IMG/VR virus record: IMGVR_UViG_2541047790_000011
Length of the DNA: 22,955 nucleotides
Direction: 5' to 3' (one strand)
Source of the DNA: a virus
Taxonomy: Duplodnaviria; Heunggongvirae; Uroviricota; Caudoviricetes
A model generated the notes under the pieces. The model did not search any database. It worked only from the letters and a program-made list of their open reading frames with translations, and was not told where the DNA came from. Positions 5,336 through 6,072 of this stretch are shown piece by piece; within the stretch, counting starts at the first letter, position 1; the number at the start of each line of letters is the position of its first letter. The position numbers were made by a program, and so were the translations under genes.

Positions 5336-5650
5336 ATGTGCATACATCAAAATCACTTAACAAACATGCCGACCGAAAACATGAATCAGGGGCGACAAAT
5401 GACCAAAATGCGCAGAGACAGAACAGAACCGAAATATCGCGCGTTAGACATGACAGAGCACGCTTTAAAGGTGGCAATCAGAACGATAGACCGCCACGCG
5501 GGGGAAGGATACGCGAAAGCACATCCCGAACTGATAAGCGCATTCATGACCACGGCGGCGGCAAACTTTGCCACGCTGACAGAACGGGAGATTGCCGAAG
5601 CGGAACAGGTAACAACCATCAACGTTAAAACCGGAGAGGTGGAATTATGA
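5336..5650 (+). CDS. Hypothetical protein
   Basis: 104-aa ORF; GAGGGGGG lies about 9 nt upstream of the ATG; its stop overlaps the SSB start (ATGA at 5647-5650). Confidence 0.5.
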   Translation: MCIHQNHLTNMPTENMNQGRQMTKMRRDRTEPKYRALDMTEHALKVAIRTIDRHAGEGYAKAHPELISAFMTTAAANFATLTEREIAEAEQVTTINVKTGEVEL

Positions 5651-6072
5651 CGGCACAGATAGCCGCTTACGGGCGGCTGGTGGACGACCCGCAGGTAAAA
5701 CAGACCAGCAAGGGCACACCGATGACGCTGGCGCGTATGGCGGTATCTTTGCCATGCAGCCAGGCACAGGACGGACAGGCGACGTTATGGTTATCGGTCA
5801 TCGCATTTGGCAAACAGGCCGACTTCCTGGCTAAACATCAAAAAGGCGATGTTGCCAGCGTATCCGGCACGATGCAGGTAAGCCAGTGGACCGGACAGAA
5901 CGGAGAAACGCGGCAGGGCTGGCAGGTTATCGCAGACAGCGTGATCAGTGCGCGAACAGCGCGACCGGGCGGCAAAAAAGGCCAGCAGGGGCAGGCCACT
6001 GACGCACTGAACAGGGCAAAACAGCAGACGGGTCAGCACGATGATCCGTACGGGGACAACATACCGTTTTAG
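5647..6072 (+). CDS. ssb: Single-stranded DNA-binding protein (SSB-like)
   Basis: 141-aa product. The N-terminal region aligns by eye with the E. coli SSB OB-fold (IAAYGRLVDDPQVK... / LWLSVIAFGKQADFLAKHQKGDVASVSGTMQVSQWT); Gly/Gln-rich linker; C-terminal DDPYGDNIPF resembles the SSB acidic tip DFDDDIPF. Confidence 0.75.
   Translation: MTAQIAAYGRLVDDPQVKQTSKGTPMTLARMAVSLPCSQAQDGQATLWLSVIAFGKQADFLAKHQKGDVASVSGTMQVSQWTGQNGETRQGWQVIADSVISARTARPGGKKGQQGQATDALNRAKQQTGQHDDPYGDNIPF

Follow-up and report, generated by a model that had tools for sequence, protein, structure and literature searches.

The window analyzed here, the whole 22,955-nucleotide stretch of IMG/VR record IMGVR_UViG_2541047790_000011, contains a 14.3-kb capsid-forming PICI (cf-PICI) of E. 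coli and is 100% identical to the strain SaT040. Across positions 5050–6400, which include an SSB gene (5647–6072, plus strand, 141 amino acids) and a small gene directly upstream of it, 100% identity is shared with SaT040 and 15 other complete genomes. In the RefSeq annotation of SaT040, the gene order begins with cspD, yljB, a tyrosine integrase, an HTH regulator, and Icd-like fragments. It continues with DUF4222, a P4-family primase, a hypothetical protein (the small gene), SSB, a further hypothetical protein, and a reverse-strand hypothetical protein, and ends with an HK97-type major capsid protein, prohead protease, portal, head-tail connector, HNH, TerS, TerL, and clpS. The capsid gene of the island matches Pfam Phage_capsid with an E-value of 1.9e-71, and the annotation of the identical SaT040 locus has no tail, lysis, or holin genes between the integrase and clpS. 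The ends of the island are marked by an imperfect 73-nt direct repeat, the copies of which are 14,256 nt apart.

Capsid-forming PICIs have been defined (PMC10085698) as att-repeat-bounded elements with a published median size of 14 kb that encode an integrase, an AlpA-type regulator, and a primase-replicase with its origin, along with their own capsid, protease, portal, head-tail connector, HNH, TerS, and TerL genes, that have no tail or lysis genes, and that depend on a helper phage for induction and transfer. The island has this gene content (integrase, regulator, replicase and origin, and packaging set), together with the ~14-kb size and the att-like repeats. Judged from its sequence, the island is a cf-PICI by architecture and size, as defined for these elements (PMC10085698), and the first-pass annotation was therefore correct in calling it a satellite.

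Several other features of the window were noted. Short TGTTCG-spaced repeats occur at both island ends, inside the 73-nt att-like repeat (locus L001, 6863–6935 and 21119–21191), and again at window positions 6946–6971, just upstream of the capsid operon; these could be candidate sites for the island regulator or for the arm-binding domain of the integrase. Convergent with the replication operon is a 168-amino acid gene (6372–6878, minus strand) that lies where PICIs usually carry cargo, between the replication module and the capsid module, and that has a G+C content of 35–38% as compared with ~55% around it. It belongs to phrog_5789 (function unknown), has no match in PADLOC, and has a sub-threshold RHIM-like match of 15.4 bits. 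Outside the island, downstream of clpA, is a single CRISPR-DR4 repeat (Rfam RF01317, 50.1 bits) adjoining a tRNA gene (17247–17274, plus strand, and 17381–17465, minus strand); this repeat is apparently lone, without an array.

Replication module and the gene upstream of SSB

The features of the replication module are as follows.

3300–5048, plus strand: satellite replicase, a P4-family primase/helicase (D5_N, DUF5906, and Pox_D5 domains; Pfam, NCBIfam)
5056–5292, no strand: predicted iteron-type replication origin, with repeat GGTAGAGG around AT-rich stretches
5399–5650, plus strand: small upstream gene, small83, 83 amino acids, predicted helical, phrog_1231 (RefSeq, PHROGs, AlphaFold)
5633–5650, plus strand: putative coupling junction, GGAGAGG followed by a 7-nt spacer and then ATGA (read from the sequence)
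5647–5955, plus strand: SSB OB-fold domain, residues 1–103 (Pfam, PDB matches, AlphaFold, Foldseek; dN/dS 0.17)
5956–6039, plus strand: SSB linker, residues 104–131, K/R/Q/G-rich (predicted disordered, pLDDT <50; dN/dS 0.40)
6040–6072, plus strand: SSB acidic tip DDPYGDNIPF, residues 132–141, and stop codon (dN/dS 0.045, pS 0.59)
6089–6337, plus strand: small downstream gene, orf82, phrog_1957, last of the operon (RefSeq, PHROGs)
6347–6366, no strand: bidirectional terminator-like hairpin, closing the replication operon and the convergent gene at 6372–6878

The replicase carries the RefSeq name ‘DNA primase family protein.’ Between it and the small83-SSB pair lie the iterons, with eight exact copies of GGTAGAGG and three copies having one mismatch, in both orientations, within 5056–5292; all eight exact matches in the 22.9-kb window fall within 5063–5288. 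This layout fits the organization of PICI origins described previously (PMC6092414). No promoter-like site was detected on the plus strand upstream of the small83-SSB pair and no terminator-like site between the replicase gene and the pair, and Rfam detected no RNA element in the region of the replication module. The primase, origin, small83, SSB, and orf82 are likely to form one transcription unit, as suggested by this arrangement.

Two side observations concern other genes of the module. The RefSeq start of orf82 at 6089 is an ATT codon, at which homologues have ATG, and an alternative GTG start preceded by GAGGGG is located at 6095. A DUF4222 gene immediately precedes the replicase start with a 4-nt overlap, and does so with all three unrelated replicase types found in related islands (3004–3303 in the window, with the replicase at 3300–5048; 7104–7403 in L002; and 6174–6473 in L003). 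This gene may be a second conserved and uncharacterized companion of the PICI replication module.

The first-pass annotation had described, at 5336–6072, an SSB-like gene coupled to a small upstream gene, and two co-oriented open reading frames, 5336–5650 and 5647–6072, are indeed present there. The former has 104 codons when the small gene is read as its longest open reading frame. However, small83 probably starts at 5399, with 5336 being an over-extension, because 5399 is the RefSeq start, positions 1–82 of the 83-position PHROG 1231 profile align from there, the N-terminal extension is unconserved in homologues (their upstream sequences are completely different), and AGGGG is located 8 nt upstream of 5399. 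The junction between the two genes reads GGAGAGGtggaattATGA. The ATG of SSB at 5647 overlaps the TGA of small83 (5648–5650) by 4 nt, forming ATGA at 5647–5650, and a Shine-Dalgarno sequence, GGAGAGG, is located within small83 at 5633–5639, 7 nt upstream of the SSB ATG. This arrangement fits translational coupling, in which translation of SSB would depend on that of small83. Coupling had been proposed in the first-pass annotation, and the overlap and internal Shine-Dalgarno sequence agree with it, whereas the start assigned to the upstream gene is probably to be revised.

The small83 protein is under weak purifying selection (dN/dS 0.50). It has no match in Pfam, NCBIfam, or PADLOC, its only PHROGs match is the family of unknown function phrog_1231, and its helical, low-confidence AlphaFold model (pLDDT 62.6) has no Foldseek match in the PDB. 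Nor does it have any match in 50,697 phage genome records. A word-indexed search returned close relatives only, almost all from Escherichia or Shigella and one labelled Citrobacter. An exhaustive profile search recovered a wider family of 586 clusters at 50% identity, composed of 60–130-amino acid proteins with a very conserved motif, ID..FGxGYAKxHPELIAAFMxTAAxDF; these proteins also have no Pfam domain. The wider family, members of which include proteins P0241–P0390, occurs on phage-like contigs. Its neighbors are heterogeneous in 80 distant viral loci, and SSB is adjacent in only two of these; the idea that small83 is a general partner of SSB was dropped for this reason.

A divergent, satellite-restricted SSB

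The SSB gene product matches Pfam PF00436 (E-value 1.7e-16, 60.6 bits, cut-off 26) and TIGR00621 (60.6 bits, cut-off 53.95), as well as 26 solved SSB sequences in the PDB at an E-value of ≤0.001 (best, 6e-11). Its AlphaFold model, a monomer built on 14 family members, has an OB-type β core and one helix at residues 1–103 (block-mean pLDDT 81–93), followed by residues 104–141, which are predicted to be disordered (pLDDT <50). The top 50 Foldseek matches to this model in the PDB are SSBs without exception (TM 0.61–0.81, normalized to the target). The first-pass annotation had called the gene SSB-like, had suggested alignment with the host SSB as a check, and had named the lack of a modelled OB fold as a refuting outcome, and its assignment is upheld by the profile matches, the OB core, and the Foldseek result.

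Alignment with the SSB of E. coli K-12 (EcSSB) gave 26% identity. Three of the four ssDNA-stacking aromatics are kept, with W54, F60, and W88 of EcSSB corresponding to W48, F54, and W81 here. W40 of EcSSB is replaced by Cys37 and the tetramer-interface His55 by Leu49, and both replacements are invariant in the satellite SSB family. Among 54 distinct alleles, dN/dS was 0.21 for the whole gene, 0.17 for the OB core, and 0.40 for the linker, and the first of these values rules out a chance or decaying open reading frame. On the combined grounds of sequence and predicted structure, the gene product is a bona fide SSB-family protein, in which the OB core is followed by a disordered linker and then by an acidic tip with I-P-F at its end, and it would be expected to bind ssDNA.

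We found no published functional study of, or experiment on, any PICI SSB. The set ‘Primase, SSB and DUF5906’ has been described as the replication genes of Gram-negative PICIs, colocalized with mapped origins (PMC10111431), and the SSB goes unmentioned in the cf-PICI papers and in the satellite census. Thus, SSB belongs to a known family and lies in a known position, and within that family it is divergent, satellite-restricted, and functionally uncharacterized.

The SSB family has no close homologue in the 50,697 phage genome records, with the best match having 31% identity, and only 48 of 72,556 plasmid records match it (tblastn, E-value ≤1e-5). Small non-mobilizable replicons and plasmid-borne islands make up most of the closest of these 48. 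The clade therefore appears to be essentially satellite-restricted. Borrowing from helper phages was rejected as the origin of this SSB on the basis of the 31% best match and the lack of any phage match to small83, as was borrowing from conjugative plasmids, given the rarity of plasmid matches.

Within E. coli, 1413 of 5426 complete genomes have the segment 5399–6072 at a coverage of at least 80%, and a single genome can have up to six matching places. The segment consisting of the origin plus the small83-SSB pair occurs in only 17 genomes, as compared with the 1413 that have the pair, which points to a mosaic boundary between the replicase-origin unit and the pair. The replicase before the pair in sampled loci is a P4-type primase (as in the window and in EcCICFT073, which also carries the pair), a RepA-family helicase, or a DUF927 protein. 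The pair occurs both in classic PICIs, which have a lambda-like capsid, a decoration protein, and TerS, and in cf-PICIs.

To sample related islands, we collected 80 PICI-sized IMG/VR contigs carrying small83. The 4-nt ATGA overlap with SSB is kept in 63 of these, and an extra 101-amino acid gene lies between small83 and SSB in six. In about 10 of the 80, SSB is absent or is a deletion remnant fused to the next gene, and the replicases of these islands look intact.

We also scanned Enterobacterales, taking one genome per species, and obtained 34 loci from Klebsiella, Enterobacter, Leclercia, Buttiauxella, Pectobacterium, Edwardsiella, Rahnella, and other genera. SSB is downstream of the replicase, usually by 180–760 nt, in all 31 loci in which a known replicase type was detected. 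The replicase is of the DUF927 or P4 type in these loci, with the RepA-type helicase occurring additionally in E. coli islands. Escherichia-type small83 is absent from the scanned loci, and in some of these islands unrelated small genes fill its slot, again having an ATGA overlap with the SSB start. As the link to the replicase is kept and small83 is replaced, the conserved unit consists of the replicase, origin, and SSB, with the gene directly upstream of SSB being variable. The contents of the slot between the origin and SSB differ between islands and include a 101–105-amino acid family, a 132–142-amino acid family, and a 257-amino acid protein (L010, 7687–8004; L018, 7576–8004; L031, 7606–8004; L041, 6231–7004; L058, 2604–2909). 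A slot gene directly before SSB has an ATGA overlap with the SSB start, and the inserted 101-amino acid gene in L058 overlaps small83 and ends 9 nt before SSB.

This distribution bears on the possibility that SSB serves mainly in conflict, either tying up host or helper factors or ssDNA intermediates and so interfering with the helper, or shielding the island from defenses that sense phage SSB or ssDNA. Such a role would agree with the position of SSB where the replication module adjoins the PICI accessory-gene region, the high variability of the neighboring slots, the dispensability of SSB in ~10% of islands, and the absence of the family from sequenced phages. However, none of SSB, small83, orf82, or the reverse-strand gene is matched by PADLOC defense models, and the linkage conserved across Enterobacterales is to the replicase and origin, with no cargo gene. 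Literature linking PICI SSBs to interference was not found, and we consider a main role in conflict to be very unlikely.

The C-terminal tip

The SSB ends in DDPYGDNIPF, as reported in the first-pass annotation, and the host SSB ends in PPMDFDDDIPF. Nearly all of 120 cluster representatives end in DDP[YF][GS]D[NDGES]IPF. The last ten codons are the most constrained part of SSB, having a dN/dS of 0.045 despite the highest synonymous divergence (pS 0.59). Across the 54 alleles, D137, I139, and F141 are invariant, P140 is found in 52, and the only variation within the tip is at position -3 (N, D, or G). The tip shares with the host sequence MDFDDDIPF an aromatic at position -6, an Asp at position -4, and the terminal I-P-F. 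In the host, the amphipathic C-terminus of SSB docks into sites composed of a hydrophobic pocket and a basic rim in chi, DnaG, ExoI, RecQ, and RecO (PMC3632105). As judged by its constraint, the tip is a functional and strongly constrained variation on this canonical theme, with the determinants of the host tip kept. The earlier description of the tip as a variant holds in that it differs from the host sequence, but the difference is a trait of the whole family and is not peculiar to the copy in the window.

The first-pass annotation had further proposed that variation in the tip could retarget host or helper replication factors to the satellite origin. This proposal is not sustained by the data, as the host-tip determinants are kept and the tip stays the same across three unrelated kinds of replicase and two of packaging module, as seen in a cross-tabulation of PICI-sized IMG/VR contigs. 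Furthermore, recruiting partners to SSB-coated DNA is common to any SSB tip. The more specific possibility that the tip is matched to the replicase of its own island was rejected by the same cross-tabulation. Adaptation of the tip to the island’s own replicase is therefore unlikely, and the mosaic boundary between the replicase-origin unit and the pair likewise supports independence of the tip from replicase type. Satellite SSBs in other genera end in FDDEAPF, FDDDIPF, YDDQIPF, YDDDF, or HEDDF, without relation to replicase type. As a separate observation, the cf-PICIs L021 (Enterobacter hormaechei) and L022 (Rosenbergiella sp.) have identical SSB tails, PEDFDQRPQHEDDF, and the same module order, which fits the reported spread of cf-PICIs across genera.

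As P-Y-G is not found in the host tip and is under strong purifying selection, a specific partner for the tip has to be weighed. The tip DDPYGDxIPF might have evolved for a particular partner other than the usual ones, namely a host, helper-phage, or island protein, possibly small83, which would be channelled to satellite DNA or withheld from the helper. Consistent with this, the constraint applies to the whole 10-residue motif, including P-Y-G, and exceeds that on the OB core (dN/dS 0.045 vs. 0.17), and the SSB subfamily is essentially restricted to satellites. There are also precedents, in that phage HK620 SSB loads its cognate Sak4 annealase through a variant tip, NDYPPF (PMC5928155), and predicted Pol-SSB pairs of mobile genetic elements interact through variable SSB tails (PMC10061031). 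Nevertheless, the tip is unchanged across the three replicases and two packaging modules, and DDP[YF]xDxIPF tips also occur in islands without small83. Other genera with the same replicase types have different acidic tips (FDDEAPF, YDDDF, and FDDDIPF), a pattern that resembles drift about a generic acidic-aromatic motif, and invariance falls precisely on the residues that the host tip also has. We consider a partner of this kind to be unlikely.

A narrower form of the idea, that the constrained DDPYGDxIPF tip is a dedicated adaptor for one partner common to the hosts or helpers of these islands, seems to us distinctly unlikely. The partner would be either a host replisome or restart factor having an altered preference or a helper-phage protein. 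If such an adaptor existed, the satellite would out-compete or sabotage helper replication, beyond supplementing host SSB, and small83, which is co-translated and lacks a Pfam domain, could belong to the same device.

Proposed role and relation to known systems

The explanation that best accounts for the data overall, and in which we have moderate confidence, is that the SSB-family protein is an accessory part of the satellite replication module. Once a helper phage has induced the island, SSB would be transcribed as part of the replicase operon, with transcription passing across the iteron origin, as suggested by the co-orientation of these genes and the lack of promoter-like or terminator-like sites between them. 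It would be translated in step with small83 through the observed ATGA overlap. The protein would then coat ssDNA exposed as the island primase-helicase opens the origin and drives forks, at a time when helper and satellite are presumably both amplifying and competing for host SSB. Lastly, the conserved residues of the amphipathic tip suggest that it docks on the pockets through which host proteins of the replisome and of repair, chi of Pol III for example, bind SSB, and so brings host SSB clients to satellite DNA.

In this scheme, SSB would boost satellite replication and would not be required for it. The protein is taken to be accessory because ~10% of related islands lack SSB and because a published pri-rep-ori segment replicates alone. 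That segment, from EcCICFT073, was found to sustain plasmid replication by itself, in a report whose text is silent on whether the construct included SSB (PMC6092414).

Several observations count against an accessory replication role. Residues W40 and H55 of EcSSB are replaced here (C37 and L49). P-Y-G is as conserved as I-P-F, which the reuse of host-type pockets does not require. Finally, there is no close phage relative (best match 31% among the 50,697 genomes), and the protein could have a satellite-specific rather than a generic task.

E. coli very commonly carries PICIs and cf-PICIs, and about a quarter of its complete genomes have the small83-SSB pair. Studies of PICI replication have so far dealt only with Pri-Rep and ori. 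Should SSB enhance replication, or bias the competition with the helper over the host replisome, SSB would be a widespread factor in the fitness of satellites and in gene transfer. The SSB gene had been annotated beforehand and had been placed among the PICI replication genes, and the practical gain here is better annotation of where small83 starts, how far the origin extends, how the operon is organized, and how the tail motif is shared across the family.

SSB genes on mobile elements are well known. Conjugative-plasmid SSBs, such as the ssb of F, are extra copies carried by mobile elements, are non-essential for the element, and are thought to supplement host SSB. The satellite SSB differs from these in distribution, with its matches to plasmids confined to the 48 records described above.

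The closest parallel among phages is the SSB of HK620, which is likewise a distant SSB homologue encoded by a mobile genetic element, with a variant acidic tip that ends in P-F and is needed for function (PMC5928155). Unlike the HK620 SSB, which adjoins an annealase and serves recombination, the satellite SSB is tied to a replicase and origin in an island without an annealase, and no close sequence relationship was seen in the phage collection. The phage SSB-Sak4 and SSB-Erf pairs raise the alternative that the satellite SSB assists a recombination or annealing protein as its cofactor and serves recombination rather than replication. Apart from this precedent (PMC5928155), the evidence is contrary: the only recombinase annotated in the island is the tyrosine integrase, no annealase or other recombinase is annotated there or was detected in related islands, and no known family shows a detectable resemblance to small83. 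Service to recombination is accordingly extremely improbable.

Like the chromosomal SSB of E. coli (ssb, b4059), the satellite SSB has an OB fold, equivalents of W54, F60, and W88, a disordered linker, and an amphipathic acidic tip. It differs in length (141 vs. 178 amino acids), in sequence (26% identity, with W40 replaced by Cys and H55 by Leu), in its linker, which is about half as long and basic as compared with the Gly/Gln/Pro-rich linker of the host, and in its tip (DDPYGDNIPF vs. MDFDDDIPF). Its gene also adjoins the satellite origin and is dispensable in some islands. The replication module of the Gram-negative PICI EcCICFT073 (PMC6092414) has the same organization, with SSB located directly 3’ of the replicase and iterons. 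Published PICI work has tested only pri-rep and ori, and the element described here differs in being of the cf-PICI type.
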